Shown piece after piece: positions 5,007 to 38,964 of a DNA stretch of 42,114 nucleotides (position 1 is the stretch's first letter; each line of letters opens with the position of its first letter). This DNA is from a virus (Duplodnaviria > Heunggongvirae > Uroviricota > Caudoviricetes). The notes beneath the pieces were generated by a model. That model did not search any database. It was not told where the DNA came from and saw nothing but the letters and a program-made list of their open reading frames with translations. The position numbers were made by a program, and so were the translations under genes. The stretch lies in the IMG/VR virus record IMGVR_UViG_2875703104_000005, one strand, 5' to 3'.

Positions 5007-5086
5007 AACTTGTTACCTCGGTCTGTTACCGTTGAGGTAATAATTATGCGTATTTGGTTTGATGTCAATAGATATGAGTTAAAAAA

Positions 5087-5159: not shown

Positions 5160-5744
5160 TTATTGTTTGTTTTTTTCGTTCTGGTTGATGACAAATTCAA
5201 TGTAACTTTCGATCTTTGCTTTCTCGGTTTCGGGTAACAATGCGTAGCGCGAGCGGTCATAGTTGATGGTCGCAGGGTCGTGCGGGTGAATCAGTAATTC
5301 ATAGCCGTGACGCCCGAATGCTGATGCAACATTCTCCAGGGTGGAAATGGAAACACTGACCTCATTGTTTAACAGGCGGCTGATTGTCACCTGGGCGACG
5401 CCGGATGCGCGGTGAAGTTTTCCCTGAGTTGAAAGGTCGCGGCTTTCGCTCATCCAGCGTTCCAGGTTGTGAGCCGCCAGCTGACCAATGTCGCTTGGGC
5501 CGACAGGCTGAAAACCTTCCTGAGAAAGCGAGCGATCGATATCAAGCCAGTTACGTGGTTTATTGGCGGCAGCTTCAATTTTTCGCGCAACCTGGTCGCC
5601 GATAACCTTCTTGCCAAGAGCCCAGCGGTTTACCAGATTTGCCTGAGTTCCAAGTTTTTCTGCCATCCGCGTCTGAACACCATTGAATTCACGGTCGATC
5701 AAGTCGTTGAGATTTTGCCTGCGGACGTCCTGGATACTTTTCAT
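5160..5744 (-). CDS. CI-like repressor with two HTH domains, no S24 peptidase domain
   Basis: 194 aa; two XRE-type HTH segments (AEKLGTQANLVNRWALGKK and ASGVAQVTISRLLNNEVSVSISTLENVA); no Ala-Gly/Ser-Lys autocleavage module. Divergent from the Cro-like gene across a three-site operator region. Confidence 0.6.
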   Translation of the reverse strand: MKSIQDVRRQNLNDLIDREFNGVQTRMAEKLGTQANLVNRWALGKKVIGDQVARKIEAAANKPRNWLDIDRSLSQEGFQPVGPSDIGQLAAHNLERWMSESRDLSTQGKLHRASGVAQVTISRLLNNEVSVSISTLENVASAFGRHGYELLIHPHDPATINYDRSRYALLPETEKAKIESYIEFVINQNEKNKQ

Positions 5745-9423: not shown

Positions 9424-9680
9424 AATTTTCCAAATTTTCTGAGTTGGTGAATCGTATTTTGTCCAACAACCACAGCCATCGTCGCGATATGGATGTAACA
9501 ATCGTTGTTCATTCGCCTGGCAGCATTGGTTCAACACCTTCAGTTGAGGTTCAGTCAATTCACGCTGGTTTTGATTGGGATTCCGGGAAAGTGCTTATTT
9601 TCCCATCACAGCCACTGACCACGCTAACACCAGAACTGGATGCTCTCTGTGGCGAAAAGAGAAACCAGACTGGCAGATGA
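9420..9680 (+). CDS. Hypothetical protein
   Basis: 86 aa; ATG overlaps the upstream stop; AAGGGG RBS. Confidence 0.45.
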   Translation: MKFSKFSELVNRILSNNHSHRRDMDVTIVVHSPGSIGSTPSVEVQSIHAGFDWDSGKVLIFPSQPLTTLTPELDALCGEKRNQTGR

Positions 9681-9893
9681 TGTAAGGCTATTGCGCCAGG
9701 AGGAACAGGAAAGGCGGAAAAATATAGAAAAGTTAATTTAGATTGAGCGTAACGCGAAAGCGCGGATATGCAGGGCGACAAAATCCAGAACTGAATAATT
9801 AAATTTAGCACTGTAAATAAAATCAAATCCTTAACCGGAGGGATTTCTGCACCCTCAGAACATCAGGAGGCCGTCCGAAAGGGCGGTAGTGAA

Positions 9894-10076
9894 ATGCGAA
9901 AATTCAAAATAATTATTGAAACGGGAATAGCCGGTGGAGATTTCGAGGATGAATTCGAAGTGGATGATGATGCAACACCAGATGAAATACAGGATGAAGC
10001 TAAAGATATTTTCTTTAACTACTGCAATTACTCATACCACGAAATAAAAGACGAAGAGGAAGAACAAAATGGCTGA
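9894..10076 (+). CDS. Small acidic hypothetical protein
   Basis: 60 aa, very acidic C-terminus; follows a 213-bp noncoding gap. Confidence 0.4.
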   Translation: MRKFKIIIETGIAGGDFEDEFEVDDDATPDEIQDEAKDIFFNYCNYSYHEIKDEEEEQNG

Positions 10077-10245
10077 TTTTGGTTCAACTAAATATAACGC
10101 CAGTTTTGAAGAATGGCATGAACTGTTAATGGATTATGCAGAGTTACGCGGTGGAAGTGCCGCTGATGCTGAAGCATGGCGTGATGATTATGAAGCAGGG
10201 AAAACACCGGTCGAAGCATATTGTGATGAGTGGGGCGATGAATGA
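10069..10245 (+). CDS. Small protein (58 aa), C-terminal 34 aa shared with the 10602-10829 product
   Basis: Not in the ORF track; ATG 10069 overlaps the upstream stop. Its 3' part lies inside the first copy of the tandem duplication. Confidence 0.4.
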   Translation: MADFGSTKYNASFEEWHELLMDYAELRGGSAADAEAWRDDYEAGKTPVEAYCDEWGDE

Positions 10246-10601
10246 GCGAGATTAATTATCAGGAAGGGCATGAAAAGGTAGGGCAGGCAAAACCAGTGGC
10301 ATGGCGATATCGCTACGTGAAAAAAGGCGTTACAGACTTTCAGGGGAAGCAGTGGGTTGGTGACTGGAAATATGTCCCGACAAAAGAGGATTGTAACGAC
10401 AGACCAAACTATGAAATTCAGGCGTTATTCACGGCCCCGCCAGCTTCGGTGACATCAGAAGGACTGGTTAAAGCTGTGCGCTTTTATGAACAGGTACGGC
10501 GTGAGGATCCGCCAGTTGAAACCGGAGCATGGAAAGACGCTATTGACTGGGTACTCAAGGAGGCCTGCCTGGTTGTAAACACGGGCATCAAAGGAGGCTG
10601 A
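10242..10601 (+). CDS. Hypothetical protein, paralog A
   Basis: 119 aa; first about 78 residues identical to the 10826-11185 product, C-terminal part diverged. Confidence 0.55.
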   Translation: MSEINYQEGHEKVGQAKPVAWRYRYVKKGVTDFQGKQWVGDWKYVPTKEDCNDRPNYEIQALFTAPPASVTSEGLVKAVRFYEQVRREDPPVETGAWKDAIDWVLKEACLVVNTGIKGG

Positions 10602-10829
10602 ATGGGTATTGCCGCAAGTTATACCATGCATCTCTATTGTGATTGCCGCCAGTGTACGGATGGCAAATATCAGTCGCCAGATTTTGGTGAGTATATCGGT
10701 ACGTCATGGGCTGGCTGTGCAACAGAGTTACGCGGTGGAAGTGCCGCTGATGCTGAAGCATGGCGTGATGATTATGAAGCAGGGAAAACACCGGTCGAAG
10801 CATATTGTGATGAGTGGGGCGATGAATGA
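10602..10829 (+). CDS. Small Cys-rich protein (75 aa), chimeric across the duplication junction
   Basis: Strong AAGGAGG RBS; N-terminus unique (CDCRQC), C-terminal 34 aa identical to the 10069-10245 product. Confidence 0.45.
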   Translation: MGIAASYTMHLYCDCRQCTDGKYQSPDFGEYIGTSWAGCATELRGGSAADAEAWRDDYEAGKTPVEAYCDEWGDE

Positions 10830-15416: not shown

Positions 15417-15493
15417 TGGCGTGGCATGCAGGATTCGAACCTGCGACCAACCGCTTAGAAGGCGGTTGCTCTGTCCAACTGAGCTAATGCCAC
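15417..15493 (-). tRNA. tRNA-Arg (anticodon UCU), phage-borne
   Basis: 77-nt cloverleaf read directly: acceptor GTGGCAT/ATGCCAC, D-arm GCTC AGTTGGACA GAGC, anticodon loop CTTCTAA, T-arm GCAGG TTCGAAT CCTGC, discriminator G, CCA. Closely resembles enterobacterial argU-type tRNA. Confidence 0.8.
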
Positions 15494-18114: not shown

Positions 18115-18812
18115 TCATGAATTTATTTGAGCGTTTGCTGTATCGCCGTCTTTGCAATGAGCAACCAGTCGATGGTGGAGCAGCTCCGGCTGCGTCAGAA
18201 CCGTCAGCGCCTGCAGGTGATAACCCTGCTCCAGTTGGTGATCCATCACAACCGGAAGGTGATAAGCCACAACCTGTTGCTGATGGCGATAAACCTGCTG
18301 ATGACAAAAAGCCTGAAAACGATAAGCAGGATGAAAAAAAGGACGGCGATAAAACAGAGGGTGCGCCTGAGAAGTACGAGTTTCAGGCTGCCGAAGGCGT
18401 AGAGCTGGATACAGAAGCGTTGAAGGAATTCGAGCCGGTGGCGCGAGAACTAAACCTGACCAACGAGCAAGCGCAAAAGCTGGTTGATGCTTATCCGAAG
18501 ATTCTGGCAGGTGTTCAGCAGCGCCAGGCAGAAGCCTGGCAGAAAACAACCGAGCAGTGGGCTGCTGATGTAAAAGCTGACAAAGAAATCGGTGGCGACA
18601 AGTTGATTTCTAACCTTAGCGCCGCACAGCGTGCGCTTGACCAGTTCGGGACACCTGAACTCAAAGAATATCTGAACACCACCGGGCTGGGTAATCACCC
18701 TGATCTGGTCAAAACGTTCGTGAAAATCGGAAAGGCGATGTCTGAAGATGGCATGGTCACCGGTGGTAATGAAGGCCAGCGTAGTGCGGCCGAAGTGCTC
18801 TATGGCAAATAA
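18111..18812 (+). CDS. Scaffolding protein
   Basis: 233 aa, acidic, Pro/Asp/Lys-rich, immediately upstream of the capsid gene. Confidence 0.55.
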   Translation: MIMNLFERLLYRRLCNEQPVDGGAAPAASEPSAPAGDNPAPVGDPSQPEGDKPQPVADGDKPADDKKPENDKQDEKKDGDKTEGAPEKYEFQAAEGVELDTEALKEFEPVARELNLTNEQAQKLVDAYPKILAGVQQRQAEAWQKTTEQWAADVKADKEIGGDKLISNLSAAQRALDQFGTPELKEYLNTTGLGNHPDLVKTFVKIGKAMSEDGMVTGGNEGQRSAAEVLYGK

Positions 18813-32488: not shown

Positions 32489-32836
32489 TTAGTGGCGGGA
32501 GAAATAGTACACACGGAAATAAGTTACCGTCATAATCAACCGTGTCGATATCGATACGGTTGATGTTTCAATACTTTCGCGGATTACAGGGCAGACTTTG
32601 TTTGGCTGAATGCTTGAAAGCCAAGCCGCAAACTTACGAAAGGCAAGGCATATCATTAACTGTTTACCGCCAGCAGAAGGTATTTCGATTTCCGAAATAC
32701 CTTTGACAAATCTCTGTTTTAATTTAACAAATTGAGCAGCCCAAACCATACCCATGCCTTCAACGATAGGTTTCATTGGGGTGTACGGTTCGCCGTTGTG
32801 ATTGACGACATAAAGCTCTGCGCCGTGTAATGGCAC
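32489..32836 (-). pseudogene. Probable truncated remnant of a phage regulatory / anti-repressor-like gene
   Basis: 115-aa ORF whose N-terminal two thirds look like a conserved phage domain and whose C-terminus is low-complexity; abuts the moron and the inverted-repeat leader. Confidence 0.3.
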
Positions 32837-32983
32837 GTTGATAGTAGTGACAAATTTGAAACATCGCTGGTTGTAAGCCAGCAGATGCTCGTTATTTTAC
32901 GTCGCGGCACAATTTCTCGCTGCTGGCTCTTTTACACACATTAACCAAATATGGTTGATTTTAATGTTTGTCTGTGTCTATCA

Positions 32984-33000
32984 TTACCTTTGCGGTAAAT
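32984..33000. promoter_or_regulatory. Operator-like palindrome ATTACC-TTTGC-GGTAAA at the start of the left anti-repressor leader
   Basis: Marks the start of the inverted-repeat leader that precedes the Bro-N anti-repressor gene. Confidence 0.5.
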
Positions 33001-33090
33001 TTACACCGCACTCCTCTTGTGCCATAGTAATCGGGCACTGGCAAAATCCAGTGCCGGGATTGGCGTCCCGGATTACTAAAAGGCGCATTC

Positions 33091-33110
33091 ACCGCGCAAG
33101 CGGTTTTTTT
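33091..33110 (+). terminator. Leader terminator / attenuator upstream of the Bro-N anti-repressor
   Basis: Stem ACCGC/GCGGT with GCAA loop and a 7-T run, about 100 nt downstream of the operator-like site. Confidence 0.5.
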
Positions 33111-33267
33111 ATGCGTATAGCACGGCCACATTCGTATTATGGTGGGCTGTGTGGGGGCACCGAAAGGTGCGCCGGGTCCTTTTAGCCGGTTACGCCAACC
33201 CTGCACAGTTCACCACCAACCGATTGGCGTCGGTAGTGGTGATTAACCAGACTAAAAGGTAACCACT

Positions 33268-33963
33268 ATGACAGCTACAAAAAGCACGTCCATTTTTTCT
33301 TTCGAATCTCAAGCCGATATACGGGTAATCGTCATTAATGGTGAGCCATGGTTTATCGCTTCAGATGTTTGTCGGGCTATAGGCATAGCAAACCATCGAG
33401 ATGCTGTTCGAAAACTTGATGATGATGAGAAGGGCGTCGCTTCAACCGACACCCCTGGCGGTGAGCAAGAATCGATCATTATCTCCGAGTCAGGCCTCTA
33501 CACACTGATCCTCCGCTGCCGCGATGCGGTGACACCAGGCACTATCCCATACCGCTTTCGTAAATGGGTTACAGGTGAGGTTCTTCCTCAGATCCGCCGC
33601 ACCGGAAGTTACATTAAAAACTCGCTCCCGCAGGAAGAACGCATAAAGATGGTTGCCGACCAGGTAGCCAACGCCACGGCGTCAGCAGTAATGCAGGCGA
33701 TGAAGATAGAGAACAAAACCTACAGTGCCCCGCTGAAGCCCGGCTACCGCAGCCTGATTCATTCGCCGTCGGGTGTTCTCGGCCTGACGGAGAACTCACT
33801 GCTGATGAATCTGCTGAACCAGTTACAGGAAGACGGGCACGACGTATCGGGCGCGGCGGCGGAACTGACCACCATGTTCTGCTACATCGTCGGTGTGAGC
33901 AAATGCCTGCGTGATATCCAGACGCACGCGGAGTACATCAACGACAAGGCAGGGTTCTTCTGA
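33268..33963 (+). CDS. Anti-repressor, Bro-N N-terminal domain with shared C-terminal domain
   Basis: 231 aa; Bro-N pattern (IRVIVINGEPWFIASDVCRAIG ... ESGLYTLILRCR); C-terminal 80 aa identical to the C-terminus of the 35074-35730 product. Confidence 0.7.
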   Translation: MTATKSTSIFSFESQADIRVIVINGEPWFIASDVCRAIGIANHRDAVRKLDDDEKGVASTDTPGGEQESIIISESGLYTLILRCRDAVTPGTIPYRFRKWVTGEVLPQIRRTGSYIKNSLPQEERIKMVADQVANATASAVMQAMKIENKTYSAPLKPGYRSLIHSPSGVLGLTENSLLMNLLNQLQEDGHDVSGAAAELTTMFCYIVGVSKCLRDIQTHAEYINDKAGFF

Positions 33964-33990
33964 CGGGCGGCGGCACAGGGATGTGCCTTT
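33721..33990. repeat. Inverted repeat, anti-repressor C-terminal domain, left arm (partner 35048-35316)
   Basis: About 240 bp coding the shared 80-aa domain plus about 25 bp of 3' flank; only about two mismatches seen. Confidence 0.8.
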
Positions 33991-34034
33991 AAATAATTCT
34001 GTACAGATTGCAGACTGGGGGTGAATAGCGTACT

Positions 34035-34051
34035 ATTACCTCAAGGGTAAG
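34035..34051. promoter_or_regulatory. Operator-like palindrome ATTACC-TCAAG-GGTAAG upstream of the moron
   Basis: 59 bp upstream of the ATG at 34110. Confidence 0.45.
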
Positions 34052-34109
34052 AAAGCATTTTTAATCTTCCCTTCAAAACGCGTCCTGTAGCCAAACATGG
34101 GAGGACGAA

Positions 34110-34742
34110 ATGAGAACAAATACAACAAGAAAAGCGATGCCATACATTATCCCAGAAGCAGATTTCGATAGAAAACTGAACATGTCTGAGAAGAACACTA
34201 GTCACACCGAAAGCTACTTAGCGAAAGGTGTGGTTGATTTCGTTCTTCCGGGATTCACAACACCTTATGGTTATCGCCTTGTAAAATCTTGTAATGGCGA
34301 TCATTACAGAATGATTACTACCAGCGATACTCCAGAAACGGTGTATGCGGTTAAGTTAATCTTTCGGGAAGATATCGTCGAAGCCAAAAGAACATGTACG
34401 CAGATCATGGTATGGCGTACGCCTAATGTTATTCATGACCGTGCTGTTCATGGTTTGCCTCAGATTTTTTTTCAGTTCTTCCTAGAGCAATATGCGATCG
34501 TTGTATCTGATGAGCAACAAACAATCGATGGGAGAAGATTCTGGGAAAGAATGATTTCTTGGGCTATAAACACCCCAGGATATAATGTATACGTTTCAGA
34601 TGGCTCTGAAGAAGATAGACCTCTTAGCTTCATGACATCATGGGATGATTTCTATAGCCAGTGGGCTGATTTCTGTTGGGGCAGTGATAAAGATGTGCAT
34701 ACCCACAGACTACTGGTTATAAGCAAAGATAAACTGCATTAA
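34110..34742 (+). CDS. Hypothetical moron protein with its own operator-like site and terminator
   Basis: 210 aa; GGAGG RBS; operator-like palindrome 59 bp upstream; strong terminator immediately downstream; lower GC than the core genome. Confidence 0.5.
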   Translation: MRTNTTRKAMPYIIPEADFDRKLNMSEKNTSHTESYLAKGVVDFVLPGFTTPYGYRLVKSCNGDHYRMITTSDTPETVYAVKLIFREDIVEAKRTCTQIMVWRTPNVIHDRAVHGLPQIFFQFFLEQYAIVVSDEQQTIDGRRFWERMISWAINTPGYNVYVSDGSEEDRPLSFMTSWDDFYSQWADFCWGSDKDVHTHRLLVISKDKLH

Positions 34743-34745
34743 TAG

Positions 34746-34770
34746 AAGCCCGCAGCGCGGGCTTTTTTGT
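34746..34770 (+). terminator. Intrinsic terminator after the moron
   Basis: 8-bp stem AAGCCCGC/GCGGGCTT, loop AGC, then TTTTTT. Confidence 0.7.
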
Positions 34771-34840
34771 GGACGAAACAAAAGTCAGTGCTACACTCAT
34801 TGACGCCACATTGAGGTGGCTTATAGATGGAAATTTCACA

Positions 34841-35002
34841 ATGAAAAAAGCATTTGCTGCACTGTTCGTTTTGTTGTCTCTGGTAGCTTCAACTCAGGCC
34901 TTTGCCGGTCGTTGTCAGCACGACAGCGATACTGCCGCTGACGGCTCCCGCTGCGGTGGGCGTTCTGCGGATTCCCGCCCAGGCGGCGGTGGCATTCGTT
35001 AA
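34841..35002 (+). CDS. Small secreted Gly/Arg/Cys-rich peptide (53 aa)
   Basis: Signal-peptide-like N-terminus MKKAFAALFVLLSLVASTQAFA; weak RBS, so tentative. Confidence 0.3.
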   Translation: MKKAFAALFVLLSLVASTQAFAGRCQHDSDTAADGSRCGGRSADSRPGGGGIR

Positions 35003-35024
35003 AAACAAGGCCGCGAAAGCGGCC
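35001..35024 (-). terminator. Intrinsic terminator after the AntA-type gene
   Basis: Stem GGCCGC/GCGGCC, loop GAAA, then TTGTTTTT on the minus strand. Confidence 0.55.
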
Positions 35025-35038
35025 TGTGACATGTCACG
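35025..35038. repeat. 14-mer TGTGACATGTCACG, copy 3
   Basis: Immediately 3' (plus strand) of the hairpin that terminates the AntA-type gene. Confidence 0.6.
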
Positions 35039-35047
35039 ATAGTTTCG

Positions 35048-35316
35048 TTTTGCACGTCCCTGTGCCGCCGCCGTCAGAAGAACCCTGCCTTGTCGTTGAT
35101 GTACTCCGCGTGGGTCTGGATATCACGCAGGCATTTGCTCACACCGACGATGTAGCAGAACATGGTGGTCAGCTCCGCCGCCGCGCCCGATACGTCGTGC
35201 CCGTCTTCCTGTAACTGGTTCAGCAGATTCATCAGCAGTGAGTTCTCCGTCAGGCCGAGAACACCCGACGGCGAGTGAATCAGACTGCGGTAGCCGGGCT
35301 TCAGTGGGGCACTGTA
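35048..35316. repeat. Inverted repeat, anti-repressor C-terminal domain, right arm
   Basis: Reverse complement of 33721-33990 with about two mismatches. Confidence 0.8.
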
Positions 35317-35730
35317 TTCTTTTTTGTCTTCCAGCTTGATCGCCTCCATAATGGCGGGCATGAAGCCTGACAAGACCTTCTCCACCTTTGTTTCTTGTTG
35401 TCTTAAACGTTTCTCGCATTCAATGAAGTATCGGCGTATCTGGCGGCCTTTTTCGTTGCGCTCGACCATCGCAGTTTCTTTGGCCGTATCGAGGGTGAGG
35501 TGATAGTCTTTGCTACGGCGATCGCCTCCTCGACCTTTGATTTCCCGATTTGGGGAAACCAAAATATAGTCCTGATTTTCAACGAAACCATATTCAGCAA
35601 TGCGTTCTGTAATCCACGATGCAAAGCGTTTACCTACCCCAAGAAAAGTATGTAAATCGCGAGCATTAACGAGAAGAGTGGTTTCGTTGGCGATAGTGCC
35701 GTTGAATACGGGGATGAGTTGAGCGTTCAT
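35074..35730 (-). CDS. Anti-repressor, AntA-type N-terminal domain with shared C-terminal domain
   Basis: 218 aa; AntA-like N-terminus (LIPVFNGTIANETTLLVNARDLHTFLGVGKRFASWI); C-terminal 80 aa identical to the Bro-N paralog; GGAG RBS. Confidence 0.7.
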   Translation of the reverse strand: MNAQLIPVFNGTIANETTLLVNARDLHTFLGVGKRFASWITERIAEYGFVENQDYILVSPNREIKGRGGDRRSKDYHLTLDTAKETAMVERNEKGRQIRRYFIECEKRLRQQETKVEKVLSGFMPAIMEAIKLEDKKEYSAPLKPGYRSLIHSPSGVLGLTENSLLMNLLNQLQEDGHDVSGAAAELTTMFCYIVGVSKCLRDIQTHAEYINDKAGFF

Positions 35731-35888
35731 GATGGCGTCTCCACTTAGCGAATTACATCACCACCGCTGAGACCAATCAGATGGTGGTGAACTGAACGGA
35801 GTTGGTCTTACCGGCCTAAGTGGTACCGGCGTCCTTTCGGACCCCCATTCAGCCCACCATAATTCTGGCATGACTGTGCTATACGCAT

Positions 35889-35910
35889 AAAAAAACCACG
35901 TCTGGCGTGG
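35889..35910 (-). terminator. Leader terminator / attenuator upstream of the AntA-type anti-repressor
   Basis: Stem CCACG/CGTGG with a 7-T run at the equivalent leader position; stem sequence differs from the left arm but pairing is preserved. Confidence 0.5.
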
Positions 35911-36000
35911 TATGCGCCACTTAGTAATCCGGGAGACCAATCCCGGCACTGGATTTTGCCAGTGCCCGATTACTATGGCACAAGAGGAGTGCGGTGTAAA

Positions 36001-36017
36001 TTTACCGCAAAGGTAAA
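36001..36017. promoter_or_regulatory. Operator-like palindrome TTTACC-GCAAA-GGTAAA at the start of the right anti-repressor leader
   Basis: Mirror copy of the 32984-33000 site, in the right-arm leader driving the minus-strand AntA-type gene. Confidence 0.5.
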
Positions 36018-36047
36018 TATAAGCACTCCACTTGGTAATTACAAACC

Positions 36048-36320
36048 TTATCTGGTTTGTTTTCGTAATTGTTCGGCACAATAGTCGAGATGTGTTTGCA
36101 GATCCCGCATAGACATCTGTGAGCTGGTGACGTAGTTAATCAGTGCAGTCAGTTCGGCAAGTGGACCATCGACATTAAATCCATCCTTATCGAGATCCCG
36201 GAGTAATTTCATCAAGTGCGATCCCTCCACCAGTGACCTGACGCCTCCCGGCGTGTGAATCCTTTCGGTAAATCCCTCTTCCAGTGGATAGTGATACTGC
36301 TGCATCTTAATCTTCTCCAT
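36048..36320 (-). CDS. Small anti-repressor-like protein behind a LexA box
   Basis: 90 aa; homologous to the shared C-terminal domain of the two large anti-repressors (PL--G----IH-P-GV ... ELT ... RD-QTH--Y spacing conserved); consensus LexA box 8 bp upstream of its ATG. Confidence 0.6.
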   Translation of the reverse strand: MEKIKMQQYHYPLEEGFTERIHTPGGVRSLVEGSHLMKLLRDLDKDGFNVDGPLAELTALINYVTSSQMSMRDLQTHLDYCAEQLRKQTR

Positions 36321-36327
36321 GCAATAA

Positions 36328-36343
36328 CTGTATATTTATACAG
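36328..36343 (-). promoter_or_regulatory. LexA box (SOS operator)
   Basis: CTGTATATTTATACAG with flanking A/T matches CTGT-N8-ACAG; 8 bp upstream of the ATG of the 36048-36320 minus-strand gene. Confidence 0.75.
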
Positions 36344-36381
36344 TAGCAAATAATTTGTTTGCTATCCAGCACGTTTTGAAA

Positions 36382-36398
36382 ATTACCTGAAAGGTAAT
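36382..36398. promoter_or_regulatory. Operator-like palindrome ATTACC-TGAAA-GGTAAT between the LexA box and the tailspike gene
   Basis: Perfect half-sites, 104 bp upstream of the tailspike ATG and 39 bp from the LexA box. Confidence 0.5.
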
Positions 36399-36501: not shown

Positions 36502-38964
36502 ATGACGGTCTCAACCGAAGTTGACCACAACGAATACACAGGTAACGGCGTTACGACATCATTTCCGTATACCTTCCGTATTTTCAAAAAATCCGACCTG
36601 GTTGTTCAGGTGTCTGACCTTAACGGTAACGTTACAAAACTAGTGCTGGATGCTGGTTATACGGTAACAGGGGCGGGAACTTATAGTGGCGGTGCAGTGG
36701 TTCTTCCGTCGCCGCTTGCTGCTGGCTGGCGAATCACGATAGAGCGTGTGCTTGATGTGGTGCAGGAGACTGATCTTCGCAATCAGGGAAAATTTTTCCC
36801 CGAAGTTCATGAGGATGCATTTGACTACCTGACGATGCTGATCCAGCGATGTTTTGGGTGGTTCAGACGTGCATTGATGAAACCATCTTTGCTTGCAAAA
36901 TATTACGATGCAAAGCAAAACAGAATATCTAACCTTGCCGATCCATCACTTGAGCAGGACGCTGTAAATAATCGCTCAATGCGTAATTATGTCGATGCTG
37001 CAATCGCCGGGGTTGTTGGTGGTTTTGGTTGGTTTATTCAGTATGGTTCTGGAGCGGTATACAGAACACTCCAGGATAAGATGCGTGATGGTGTCAGCAT
37101 TAAGGATTTTGGAGCTCAAAATGGAATCTTAAATGATAACAAGGAGGCTTTTACAAAATCATTACATTCGTTTAGCAGTGTTTTTGTTCCGGAAGGGGTA
37201 TTCAATACATCTTTAGTTTCTCTTTCACGTTGTGGCTTGTACGGAACAGGTGGGGGAACGATAAAACAGTATGACAGAGATGGTAATCATCTGGTTTTTA
37301 ACATGCCCGATGGTGGCATGCTTAGTACGCTAACAATTATGGGAAATAAATCAGATGATAGTGTGCAGGGACACCAGGTGTCATTTTCAGGTGGCCATGA
37401 TGTATCGGTTAAAAATATCAGATTTACAAATACGCGAGGAACAGGATTTAGCTTGATCGCTTATCCGAATAATGGTATTCCGTCAGGTTACATTGTTAGA
37501 GATATAAGAGGAGAGTATTTAGGGTTCGCAAATAATAAAAAAGCAGGTTGTGTGCTTTTTGATTCATCGCAAAATACGCTAATTGATGGTGTGATAGCCA
37601 GAAATTATCCTCAGTTTGGTGCAGTGGAACTTAAAACAGCAGCAAAATATAACATTGTCAGCAATGTTATTGGTGAAGAGTGTCAGCACGTTGTTTACAA
37701 TGGAACTGAGACGGAAACTGCCCCAACGAATAATATCATTAGCAGTGTAATGGCTAACAACCCAAAATACGCCGCAGTAGTTGTTGGCAAGGGGACTGGT
37801 AACCTGATTTCGAATGTGCTGGTTGATTACTCTGAATCGGACGCAAAGCAGGCGCACGGAGTCACCGTTCAGGGAAATAATAATATTGCCAGTAATATTC
37901 TAATGACTGGGTGTGATGGGAAAAATGAATCAGGAGATCTGCAGACATCTACAACCATTCGTTTCTTAGATGCTGCACGCAGTAATTATGCGTCAATATT
38001 CCCCATGTATAGTTCTTCCGGCGTGGTTACCTTCGAGGAAGGGTGTATCAGGAACTTTGTTGAAATTAAACATCCGGGTGACAGAAATAATATTCTGAGT
38101 TCTGCATCAGCGGTGACTGGTATTTCCAGTATAGACGGCACTACAAATAGCAATGTTGTTCACGTCCCTGCGCTTGGTCAGTACGTTGGGACTATGTCAG
38201 GGCGTTTTGAATGGTGGGTTAAATATTTTAACCTTGCTAACCAGACGCTTGTTTCTGCAGATAAATTCAGAATGCTTGCTGAAGGCGATGTATCTCTGGC
38301 TGTGGGAGGCGGTATAAGTTCGCAATTGAAATTATTCAATAGTGATAATACTAAAGGCACTATGTCGCTAATAAATGGAAATATTCGAATATCTACTGGA
38401 AATTCAGAATATATACAGTTTTCTGATTCAGCCATGACACCATCGACAACGAATACTTATTCTCTTGGGTTGGCTGGTCGTGCATGGTCGGGGGGATTTA
38501 CCCAGTCAGCGTTTACGGTGCTGTCCGATGCGCGTTTCAAGACTGCTCCAGAGGTTATTGATGAGAAAATACTGGACGCATGGGAAAGAGTGGAATGGGT
38601 TTCATACCAGTACCTTGACAGGATCGAAGTGAAAGGTAAAGACGGAGCAAGATGGCACTTTGGTGCAGTTGCGCAGCATGTTATCAGTGTATTTCAGAAT
38701 GAAGGCATAGATGTGTCACGACTGGCATTTATCTGTTATGACAAGTGGAATGAGACCCCGGCAGAATACAGGGATGTGACGGAAGAAGAGCATTCTGCAG
38801 GAGTTTACCCACTTATACAGACAAAGGTTCTGGTACGCGAAGCCGTCGAGGCTGGTGAATGTTACGGTATCCGTTATGAAGAGGCTCTGATTCTGGAATC
38901 TGCGATGATGAGACGCAGGGTTAAAAAGCTGGAAGAGCAAGTTTTGCAATTAACAGGGAATTGA
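36502..38964 (+). CDS. Tailspike / tail fibre with C-terminal intramolecular chaperone (S74-like) domain
   Basis: 820 aa; conserved tail-fibre N-terminus (YTGNGVTTSFPYTF), central beta-helix-like repeats (low-GC), C-terminal SDARFK ... autoproteolytic chaperone motif. Confidence 0.75.
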   Translation: MTVSTEVDHNEYTGNGVTTSFPYTFRIFKKSDLVVQVSDLNGNVTKLVLDAGYTVTGAGTYSGGAVVLPSPLAAGWRITIERVLDVVQETDLRNQGKFFPEVHEDAFDYLTMLIQRCFGWFRRALMKPSLLAKYYDAKQNRISNLADPSLEQDAVNNRSMRNYVDAAIAGVVGGFGWFIQYGSGAVYRTLQDKMRDGVSIKDFGAQNGILNDNKEAFTKSLHSFSSVFVPEGVFNTSLVSLSRCGLYGTGGGTIKQYDRDGNHLVFNMPDGGMLSTLTIMGNKSDDSVQGHQVSFSGGHDVSVKNIRFTNTRGTGFSLIAYPNNGIPSGYIVRDIRGEYLGFANNKKAGCVLFDSSQNTLIDGVIARNYPQFGAVELKTAAKYNIVSNVIGEECQHVVYNGTETETAPTNNIISSVMANNPKYAAVVVGKGTGNLISNVLVDYSESDAKQAHGVTVQGNNNIASNILMTGCDGKNESGDLQTSTTIRFLDAARSNYASIFPMYSSSGVVTFEEGCIRNFVEIKHPGDRNNILSSASAVTGISSIDGTTNSNVVHVPALGQYVGTMSGRFEWWVKYFNLANQTLVSADKFRMLAEGDVSLAVGGGISSQLKLFNSDNTKGTMSLINGNIRISTGNSEYIQFSDSAMTPSTTNTYSLGLAGRAWSGGFTQSAFTVLSDARFKTAPEVIDEKILDAWERVEWVSYQYLDRIEVKGKDGARWHFGAVAQHVISVFQNEGIDVSRLAFICYDKWNETPAEYRDVTEEEHSAGVYPLIQTKVLVREAVEAGECYGIRYEEALILESAMMRRRVKKLEEQVLQLTGN

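Follow-up and report, generated by a model that had tools for sequence, protein, structure and literature searches.

Two isrK-C4 leaders with different pairing codes precede convergent antirepressor genes in an Escherichia coli prophage

We describe the antirepressor locus of IMG/VR virus record IMGVR_UViG_2875703104_000005, a stretch of 42,114 nucleotides (the window hereafter) that represents an Escherichia coli prophage of the epsilon15/phiV10 type (Uetakevirus), sited between guaA and yfgI. The locus contains two convergent genes for large antirepressors (Ants), one with a Bro-N head and one with an AntA head, and each of them is preceded by a leader that Rfam recognises as isrK followed by the C4 antisense RNA. 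The two leaders carry different pairing codes, and every difference between the left and right a and b sites is compensated in all three partners. Beside them stands a gene for a small Ant with a LexA box at its promoter region. The best explanation overall, which we consider probable, is that the locus forms the secondary immunity (antirepressor) region of the prophage, in which two known control systems are stacked: a small Ant under SOS control, and two large Ants silenced by C4 RNAs of different codes.

Two leaders of the isrK-C4 type

A preliminary description of the window, prepared from the sequence alone, listed two convergent antirepressor genes with Bro-N and AntA heads behind related leaders in inverted orientation. 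Both observations hold: the open reading frames (ORFs) run as described with both head domains found by Pfam, and the leaders form three collinear arm pairs (32974-33243 / 35757-36026, 76-87% each) that BLAST aligns at 83.2% identity over ~265 nt. An 81-bp stretch identical between both leaders contains the isrK promoter-like site. The term leader proved too modest, however, as each copy is more than a generic upstream region, namely an isrK plus C4 module of the P1 immI type. All four Rfam matches lie above the gathering scores (45 for C4, RF01695; 50 for isrK, RF01394). Both C4 copies fold into a long closing stem with two hairpins inside, the minimum free energy (MFE) folds agreeing with RF01695, and both isrK copies show two 5' hairpins, an unpaired linker and an intrinsic terminator. 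Neither of the two large-Ant leaders contains a LexA box.

The a and b sites were found by a scripted complementarity search of each leader (positions in Table 1). On the left, CCTTTTAG of C4 pairs with CTAAAAGG, which occurs in isrK and again at the Shine-Dalgarno (SD) sequence, and ACGCCAA pairs with TTGGCGT, present twice. On the right the same roles are taken by CCACTTAG with CTAAGTGG and by AGACCAA with TTGGTCT. In both copies a' and b' match a2 and b2 downstream perfectly (over 7 and 8 nt), while the second target copy (a1 and b1) lies upstream of c4, inside isrK, and co-varies with a' and b'. According to the predicted folds (Rfam alignments and MFE) all interacting sites are placed in single-stranded loops or linkers. 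For the two modules of the window, the computed energy of the a-site duplexes is -9 to -10 kcal/mol with cognate partners and -3 to -5 kcal/mol with non-cognate ones.

Two ORFs span much of the leaders (32955-33185 on the plus strand and 35758-36081 on the minus strand, 76 and 107 aa), and these are most likely artefacts of structured RNA sequence. As candidates for a coupled ORF of the icd or orf45 kind they were rejected, not being conserved between the copies; no icd-like small ORF was found in either leader. On the left, a TAA at 33260-33262 ends the AUGA-overlap frame (read by hand).

The codes were then compared across a wider family. A search of viral contigs by a pattern without constraint on the a1 loop yielded 120 loci, and the complete survey set comprised 127 leaders (78 unique, 74 parsed); the viral contigs were chosen by their isrK pattern and include related sequences, and the counts below are to be read as descriptive and not as independent events. 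Among the 127 leaders 22 distinct b' loops and 4 a' variants are seen. The complement of each leader's own b' recurs at a fixed position in isrK and again 7-11 nt before the start codon that follows. Perfect matches to self average 7.3 nt at b1 and 8.2 nt at b2, while non-cognate combinations average 4.4 and 5.0 nt, and a1 and a2 match over 7 nt in almost all leaders. Types of a and b are freely combined (26 codes in 126 modules). We regard this comparison as strong evidence for a functional pairing whose specificity diversifies as it does between P1 and P7.

A Bro-N or AntA head joined to a C-terminal domain (C-domain) of the window's type is encoded by 94 of the 123 modules with a downstream ORF, and the small ant lies directly upstream in 50 of these 123. 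When 93 fused Ants were clustered, their heads fell into 7 clusters (6 Bro-N, 1 AntA) and their C-domains into 10, and these combine with each other and with 26 leader codes in many ways that are not one to one: five head clusters share C-domain cluster 0, head cluster 0 occurs with nine C-domain clusters and nine leader codes, and the b' loop TACCACTTAGG serves Bro-N and AntA heads alike. In CUVET21-H2 a Bro-N head even occupies the place of the window's AntA head. Domain shuffling by recombination, as had been proposed for the two genes of the window, is thereby well supported on a larger sample, and it extends to the leader codes.

Convergent twin modules with differing combinations of components recur at no fewer than six other loci and in CUVET21-H2, N21 and UTME-9. 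That co-resident twins always differ in code is true for seven out of seven pairs, but was rejected as evidence, given that random pairs share a code in only 7.4% of cases (P = 0.58).

The shared C-domain, the small Ant and Rep

The C-domain common to both large Ants lies in inverted arms (33708-33966 / 35071-35329) that agree at 96% over 259 nt in a repeat search of the window and extend past the stop codons (33966-33986 / 35052-35072, 21 nt, 95%). BLAST aligns these inner arms at 94.3% over 299 nt, and their longest perfect runs measure 101, 59 and 39 bp. At about 243 nt upstream of the stop codons, a stretch of 30 nt suffices for the identity to drop from 93-100% to 50% or below, an abrupt edge that we interpret as a sharp recombination boundary. 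The last 81 codons of both genes encode identical protein, in line with the near-identical domain of ~80 aa described before, though at the DNA level there are 5 differences and not about 2. All five are synonymous. Given 59 synonymous and 193 non-synonymous sites, such a pattern (5 synonymous, 0 non-synonymous) has P ~7e-4 under neutrality, which indicates that the domain is under purifying selection and that both copies are kept by selection, amounting to more than a fresh duplicate.

Over aa 150-226 the large-Ant C-domain matches chain E of PDB entry 5D50 (E 1e-13), the Rep-Ant complex of Salmonella phage SPC32H. Pfam and NCBIfam provide no model for the domain, a weak DUF724 match being far under threshold. 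The small Ant is 88% identical to the SPC32H ant locus (tblastn) and 44% identical to the large-Ant C-terminus over 78 aa (E 1e-17). It had been presented initially as a stand-alone, LexA-controlled copy of the C-domain of 90 aa; the copy is real and the LexA box is present, but the length is probably 5 codons too long. Because of the upstream GGAG, the match to an 86-aa PDB chain and the agreement with RefSeq, the gene most likely starts at ATG 36305 (85 aa) and not at ATG 36320 (90 aa). A terminator scan predicted no terminator between its stop codon and the right isrK (isrK-R).

The Rep/Ant pair reportedly forms the lytic switch of SPC32H (PDB 5D50 and 5D4Z), and the SPC32H ant is said to be controlled by LexA. 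The Rep of the window has helix-turn-helix (HTH) domains (in Pfam HTH_3 alone) and no S24 peptidase domain. SPC32H Rep binds DNA as a tetramer, which is broken up when Ant, itself a tetramer, binds two Rep dimers (PMC9638917). Because the shared C-domain is homologous to a protein that binds the phage family's own Rep, it suggests a common target for this domain of both large Ants; only the variable heads could supply different ones, such as the repressors of different co-resident prophages that the preliminary description had considered for the paralogues. Overexpression of the Bro-N Ant of ZX5 (ORF4), which has ~98% DNA identity with the left large-Ant gene, reduced lysogeny (PMC9782041), the single laboratory result that bears on large Ants of the Bro-N/C-domain type.

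The palindrome TTACC-N5-GGTAA occurs 14 times in the window with at most one mismatch (positions 5026, 5088, 5800, 5848, 6185, 8087, 8149, 12652, 15816, 32984, 34036, 36002, 36383 and 36615), against 0.5 expected. The sites are nearly all intergenic and promoter-proximal: two lie between rep and a cro-like gene, two downstream of rep, and one abuts the -35 element of each isrK promoter (centre at about -44). The same palindrome is found upstream of ant in SPC32H (L128 2404-2420). It has the appearance of a Rep operator in scattered copies, much like the dispersed C1 operators of P1.

The junction behind the right large-Ant gene gives a hint about the origin of the module. The GC-rich hairpin and the GTGACATGTCAC junction that follow the AntA-Ant gene in the window also directly follow the stand-alone ant in SPC32H (L128 2756-2800), which suggests that the isrK-C4-head-C-domain unit arose as an insertion or a duplication-fusion between an ancestral ant and its hairpin.

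Table 1. Features of the antirepressor locus and of its presumed repressor target (positions in the window; -L and -R denote the left and right module)
Feature	Position	Strand	Evidence
isrK-L: a1 TTGGCGT 33060-33066 in hairpin-2 loop; b1 CTAAAAGG 33076-33083 in unpaired linker	33035-33110	+	RF01394, 77.9 bits; complementarity; fold
isrK-L intrinsic terminator with T-run	33091-33104	+	terminator scan
C4-L: b' CCTTTTAG 33178-33185 in hairpin-2 loop; a' ACGCCAA 33192-33198 in unpaired internal loop	33135-33220	+	RF01695, 77.7 bits; complementarity; fold
Left targets: a2 TTGGCGT 33224-33230; b2 CTAAAAGG 33252-33259 (SD region, 8 nt before ant ATG)	33224-33259	+	complementarity
Large Ant, 231 aa: Bro-N head (aa 17-107), linker, SPC32H-Ant-like C-domain (~aa 148-231; nt 33709-33963)	33268-33963	+	Pfam Bro-N 2.3e-21; phrog_130/450
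Large Ant, 218 aa: AntA head (aa 21-92) and C-domain common to left copy	35074-35730	-	Pfam AntA 3.6e-27; BLASTP; substitution pattern
Right targets: b2 CTAAGTGG 35741-35748 (overlaps SD GGAG, 10 nt before ATG); a2 TTGGTCT 35770-35776	35741-35776	-	complementarity
C4-R: b' CCACTTAG 35816-35823; a' AGACCAA 35802-35808	35780-35864	-	RF01695, 61.2 bits; complementarity; fold
isrK-R: a1 TTGGTCT 35934-35940; b1 CTAAGTGG 35917-35924; terminator 35895-35911	35889-35965	-	RF01394, 67.7 bits
Promoter-like TTTACA-17-CATAGT (TG-extended), would start transcription at isrK-L 5' end	33000-33028	+	promoter scan
Right isrK promoter-like site	35972-36000	-	promoter scan
Small antirepressor, 85 aa, SPC32H Ant orthologue	36048-36305	-	PDB 5D50_E, E 5.6e-47; phrog_450
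LexA box TACTGTATAAATATACAGTT, overlaps small-ant promoter region	36326-36345	-	sole AT-rich CTGT-N8-ACAG in window
Rep, prophage repressor, 194 aa, presumed target of Ant domain	5160-5744	-	PDB 5D50_A, E 4e-42
Palindrome TTACCTTTGCGGTAA, candidate Rep operator abutting -35 of left isrK promoter	32984-32998		palindrome count
Operator-like palindrome upstream of cargo ORF	34036-34050		palindrome scan
Operator-like palindrome at right isrK promoter	36002-36016	-	palindrome scan
Operator-like palindrome upstream of small-ant LexA box	36383-36397		palindrome scan; cf. SPC32H
GC-rich hairpin with T-run (AGGCCGC...GCGGCCT; predicted terminator for AntA-Ant transcript) and GTGACATGTCAC junction	35008-35042	-	terminator scan
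Cargo ORF, 210 aa	34110-34742	+	phrog_1349 (unknown function), E 3e-113
Cargo ORF, 53 aa, small membrane-associated or secreted protein	34841-35002	+	phrog_14503 'membrane associated protein', 2.3e-40; RefSeq CDS
Truncated P22_AR_N pseudogene, C-terminus missing	32570-32881	-	Pfam; adjoins left leader

The locus is flanked by the virion genes and the tail-fibre gene (36502-38964), and its segment 32400-36500 is found at 100% identity in 31 complete E. coli genomes; many of these come from clinical isolates, and at least one bears the label ST131. The arrangement in phiV10 is a tail-fibre gene pointing leftwards, followed rightwards by a small gene, a leader and a Bro-N 'anti-immunity' gene, in single copy. 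In TL-2011b a Bro-N module stands opposite an intact P22-type arc-ant pair with a sar antisense RNA (L003 5197-6381 and 6143-6210), in the spot that corresponds to the P22_AR_N remnant of the window; this spot therefore appears to have hosted at least three different antirepressor systems.

Elsewhere in the window, a tRNA-Arg gene (anticodon TCT) is located at 15417-15493 on the minus strand, between the terminase and portal gene clusters. In comparison with the reference strain MCJCHV-1 an early-region segment of ~1 kb (~9636-10722) differs (98% identity), and due to a coordinate shift of 482 bp upstream of it the RefSeq coordinates of genes before 10723 need shifting.

Proposed control and competing explanations

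In the mechanism that we propose, the SOS arm would consist of the LexA-repressed promoter and the 85-aa Ant expressed from it, which by homology would bind the non-cleavable Rep and free the DNA. The antisense arm would be formed by the two convergent units, each transcribed from its own promoter through isrK (with the decoys a1/b1 and a leaky terminator) and C4 into the large Ant gene. Once processed from this transcript, C4 would pair via a' and b' with a2 and b2 of the same transcript family, as in immI of P1/P7, and because b2 is the Shine-Dalgarno sequence of ant itself, it would block ant translation directly. In a lysogen each C4 would keep its own large Ant untranslated. IsrK, which bears a1/b1, could act as an anti-antisense activator (compare Gifsy-1), and the large Ants would be released when C4 is out-titrated, for instance by IsrK. 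The two units would largely be controlled separately because their a and b codes differ, and by analogy with P1/P7 they might provide antisense immunity against incoming phages of either code. Since no terminator is predicted before isrK-R, the small-ant transcript probably ends there, and during SOS it may contribute further decoy RNA. Within the large Ants, the part that is paralogous to the small Ant most likely supplies Rep binding and/or tetramerisation.

Several observations weigh against parts of this explanation. At 44% identity to the small Ant, Rep binding by the C-domain is not guaranteed, and the domain could serve for oligomerisation alone. In about a quarter of the family members b1 is weaker than b2, and the decoy role of isrK is maybe not universal. 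Full orthogonality of the b sites had to be rejected: it is one-directional and hence partial, as C4-L with b2-R computes at -10.2 kcal/mol, as strong as the cognate pairs, though using stem bases. The relay known from P1 (icd, Rho-dependent termination) is absent, and repression could differ in its details. Finally, the palindrome beside the isrK promoters may repress or activate.

A more elaborate version, which we put forward tentatively and consider doubtful, is a three-tier feed-forward induction circuit. Here cleavage of LexA would turn on the small ant, and its transcript made during SOS would end in isrK-R, whose decoy titrates C4-R and unlocks the AntA-headed Ant; the second module would be unlocked independently, for example by Rep leaving the operator next to that module's promoter, and the two C4 RNAs would give immunity against superinfecting relatives of either code. 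If true, the 26 or more a/b codes would reflect an arms race over immI-type immunity among Uetakevirus-like prophages.

Alternatively, the heads might be the specificity modules: Bro-N and AntA would bind repressors of other phages, co-resident or incoming, and the C-domain would only tetramerise, so that the large Ants would serve as cross-talk weapons against different foreign repressors, own Rep remaining untouched. We think this unlikely. Bro-N domains are generally said to be DNA-binding modules, and we know of no partner for Bro-N or AntA heads, both of which count against such a role. The seven diverse and exchangeable head clusters on a conserved C-domain would fit it, as would the name 'anti-immunity' that the phiV10 annotators gave to the Bro-N protein, but homology to a protein with a solved Rep-binding function covers the full C-domain, which is under strong purifying selection in both copies. 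Trans-acting antirepressors of Salmonella do hit non-cognate repressors (PMC3121763), and the SPC32H Ant is tetrameric (PMC9638917), so that its fold can give oligomerisation; against this, the Bro-N Ant of ZX5 affected lysogeny of its own phage (PMC9782041).

Both ORFs are intact, and both leaders keep their promoter, terminator, C4 fold and all six matched sites, which makes it highly improbable that one of the modules is merely recombination debris, i.e. a recent and functionless by-product of illegitimate or homologous recombination between two phiV10-like phages that decays as the P22-type Ant pseudogene beside it has done. The region is a mosaic hotspot (with a truncated P22_AR_N beside the left leader and layouts that vary between strains), and many of the 31 genomes with the exact arrangement may be clonally related. 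Nonetheless, the lack of non-synonymous differences in the shared domain, next to 5 synonymous ones, and the recurrence of twin convergent modules in other prophages point to the maintenance of both copies.

Between the two convergent ant genes there is a slot for variable cargo. Its ORFs in the window (210 aa and 53 aa) are without match in Pfam, PADLOC or NCBIfam; the 210-aa ORF is replaced by a YafO toxin in related prophages, and a YafO-family toxin is found nearby in TL-2011b, N21 and UTME-9. The preliminary description had proposed that the C-domain arms could mediate inversion of 34110-35002, a suggestion that is not supported. When 5,426 complete E. coli genomes were searched with the junction that such an exchange would create (33300-33986 followed by 34600-35051 in reverse complement), no full-length match appeared and the best matches were other Bro-N variants in the ordinary layout; a cargo-only inversion was rejected as a frequent event. 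All 31 genomes with the window's arrangement align in a single collinear piece. No recombinase gene is present between 31266 and 38964, the sole one in the window being the integrase at the prophage end.

Measured against the phage backbone, the Ant-cargo-Ant block of N21 and UTME-9 runs the other way (32943-35349 of the window aligns with N21 in inverted orientation at 96.4%), with the cargo still co-oriented with the same Ant. The one breakpoint that was mapped (N21) lies at ~32943 of the window, outside the leader repeat, whereas at the other side homology ends at the head/C-domain boundary (35349). As homology reaches beyond the leader repeat, a simple leader-mediated flip was rejected as the origin of the N21 layout. 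A population-level inversion switch is not supported by these results, though rare RecA-mediated flips may occur. In six twin loci the C-arms are 93-99% identical, against a random-pair median of 73%, which could be due to gene conversion or to a shared need to fit the same Rep; given that the arm differences in the window are all synonymous, the latter is favoured.

Highly improbable, too, is an invertible cargo switch, in which the arms would recombine at a useful frequency and flip 33987-35051, changing which Ant the cargo follows, with coexisting isomers: the arms (~280 bp, with the perfect runs given above) would be sufficient for RecA-dependent exchange, their likeness in twin loci is compatible with ongoing gene conversion, and the block is found in both orientations among related prophages, but besides the missing junction, the collinear genomes and the lack of an invertase gene nearby, flipped relatives keep the link between cargo and Ant with a breakpoint and a homology end outside the C-arms, a flip would leave either Ant protein unaltered, and the arm similarity is equally explained by both domains fitting the same Rep.

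Significance and relation to known systems

Every component of the locus has a characterised precedent (the c4 module of P1/P7, IsrK of Gifsy-1, Rep/Ant of SPC32H and Bro-N/AntA shuffling), and since this is so, current understanding is not overturned. To our knowledge, based on a non-exhaustive search, three aspects appear to be undescribed: the c4-controlled fusion in which Bro-N or AntA heads are joined to the SPC32H-Ant fold, the occurrence of such a fusion in tandem behind a LexA-controlled small ant, and the convergent duplication with two antisense codes that brackets variable cargo. The locus links three literatures that have been treated separately, i.e. c4/immI immunity of P1, the 'dual-function' small RNA IsrK of Salmonella and Rep/Ant of SPC32H, and points to a single modular toolkit of antirepressor parts, common among podovirus prophages of enterobacteria and also present in ST131-type clinical E. 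coli. Its a/b codes, at least 26 and compensatory, form a natural library of candidate orthogonal antisense regulators and offer a testable explanation of immunity specificity among these prophages. In addition, a putative Rep-binding Ant fold fused to exchangeable heads gives a concrete handle on the function of 'Bro-N antirepressors'.

Domain shuffling of Bro-N, KilA-N and AntA has reportedly been described for phage regulators in general, with N-terminal heads that are promiscuously paired with unrelated C-terminal modules. Our survey shows likewise; the difference is that the C-terminal partner in the window is specifically of the SPC32H-Ant fold, for which Pfam and NCBIfam lack a model. 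SPC32H itself belongs to the same genus (Uetakevirus), with an orthologous small ant beside the tailspike gene, a palindrome and LexA box upstream of it, and an orthologous non-cleavable Rep. It has the stand-alone small ant only, whereas the window adds two paralogous Ant domains that are fused to heads of DNA-binding type and have c4 control in place of LexA. The immI region of P22 type (arc-ant-sar/mnt), which in TL-2011b occupies the matching genomic position, likewise is a secondary immunity region beside the tailspike gene with an antirepressor silenced by dedicated regulators, including the antisense RNA sar. Both the RNA family and the protein regulators are different ones there, and of this system the window keeps only the truncated P22_AR_N pseudogene.

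Gifsy-1 of Salmonella (isrK-orf45(STnc1160)-anrP) resembles the window in its isrK family member and leaky terminator and in a read-through transcript with a ~80-nt processed RNA complementary to IsrK, followed by the antirepressor gene. In this phage IsrK activates anrP translation ~140-fold in trans (Hershko-Shalev et al. 2016, PMC4825925), and the ~80-nt STnc1160 is processed from the read-through transcript (PMC4825925). Hfq binding of IsrK and trans-activation of the downstream antirepressor are known for Gifsy-1 alone (PMC4825925). There a translated orf45 overlaps the RNA and is coupled to anrP (AUGA), whereas in the window the corresponding frame is closed by a stop codon and the SD of ant equals b2. 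The paper compares STnc1160 with the CI RNA of P4 and makes no mention of c4 of P1 (PMC4825925); judging by position and size, STnc1160 is likely to be C4.

The closest parallel is the immI operon of P1/P7 (Oc4, promoters P2c4/P1c4, a1, b1, c4, a2, b2, icd, ant1/2). The P1 GenBank record gives the order C1 operator Oc4, promoters, a1 (7 nt), b1 (8 nt), c4, a2 (7 nt), b2 (8 nt), icd and ant1/2, and the spacings are nearly those of the left module of the window: a1 to b1 14 nt in P1 and 16 nt in the window, a2 to b2 29 and 28 nt (each from start to start), and b2 to start codon 10 and 8 nt. Shared are the C4 family (RF01695), the element order, three copies each of 7-nt a and 8-nt b sites with b2 at the ribosome-binding site, and a repressor-operator-like site at the promoter. 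In P1/P7, c4 blocks translation at b2, and the specificity of P1/P7 heteroimmunity was reportedly described in 1990. Specificity appears to be set by few compensatory bases in the window, much as heteroimmunity of P1 and P7 depends on few compensatory bases (PMC12197685). The window differs in having the module twice in one genome with two codes, in Ants made of Bro-N or AntA heads fused to an SPC32H-Ant-like domain, in an upstream a1/b1 segment that has its own intrinsic terminator and scores as isrK, and in the lack of an icd-like relay ORF, with b2 being the SD of ant itself.

The upstream segment of P1 matches the Rfam family c4-a1b1 (RF03163) and also gives a sub-threshold match to the isrK model (35 bits, E 4e-6). 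Given that both models match one segment of P1, isrK is best read as an a1/b1 element plus terminator. Rfam keeps isrK (RF01394, no clan) apart from c4-a1b1 (RF03163, clan CL00128), though both match P1 at 18218-18312 (L127). As isrK also precedes C4 in every locus examined, RF01394 and RF03163 appear to describe one homologous element. Moreover, in a minority of the surveyed leaders (L021, L032, L034, L070, L114 and L115) C4 is followed by ORFs of 62-65 aa (MATTPTQNPQFIWIIAAVRRD...) that resemble cell-division inhibitors of the Icd kind, and to judge from this order, such leaders have the c4-icd arrangement of P1 and bridge P1 and the predicted direct-control variant of the window.

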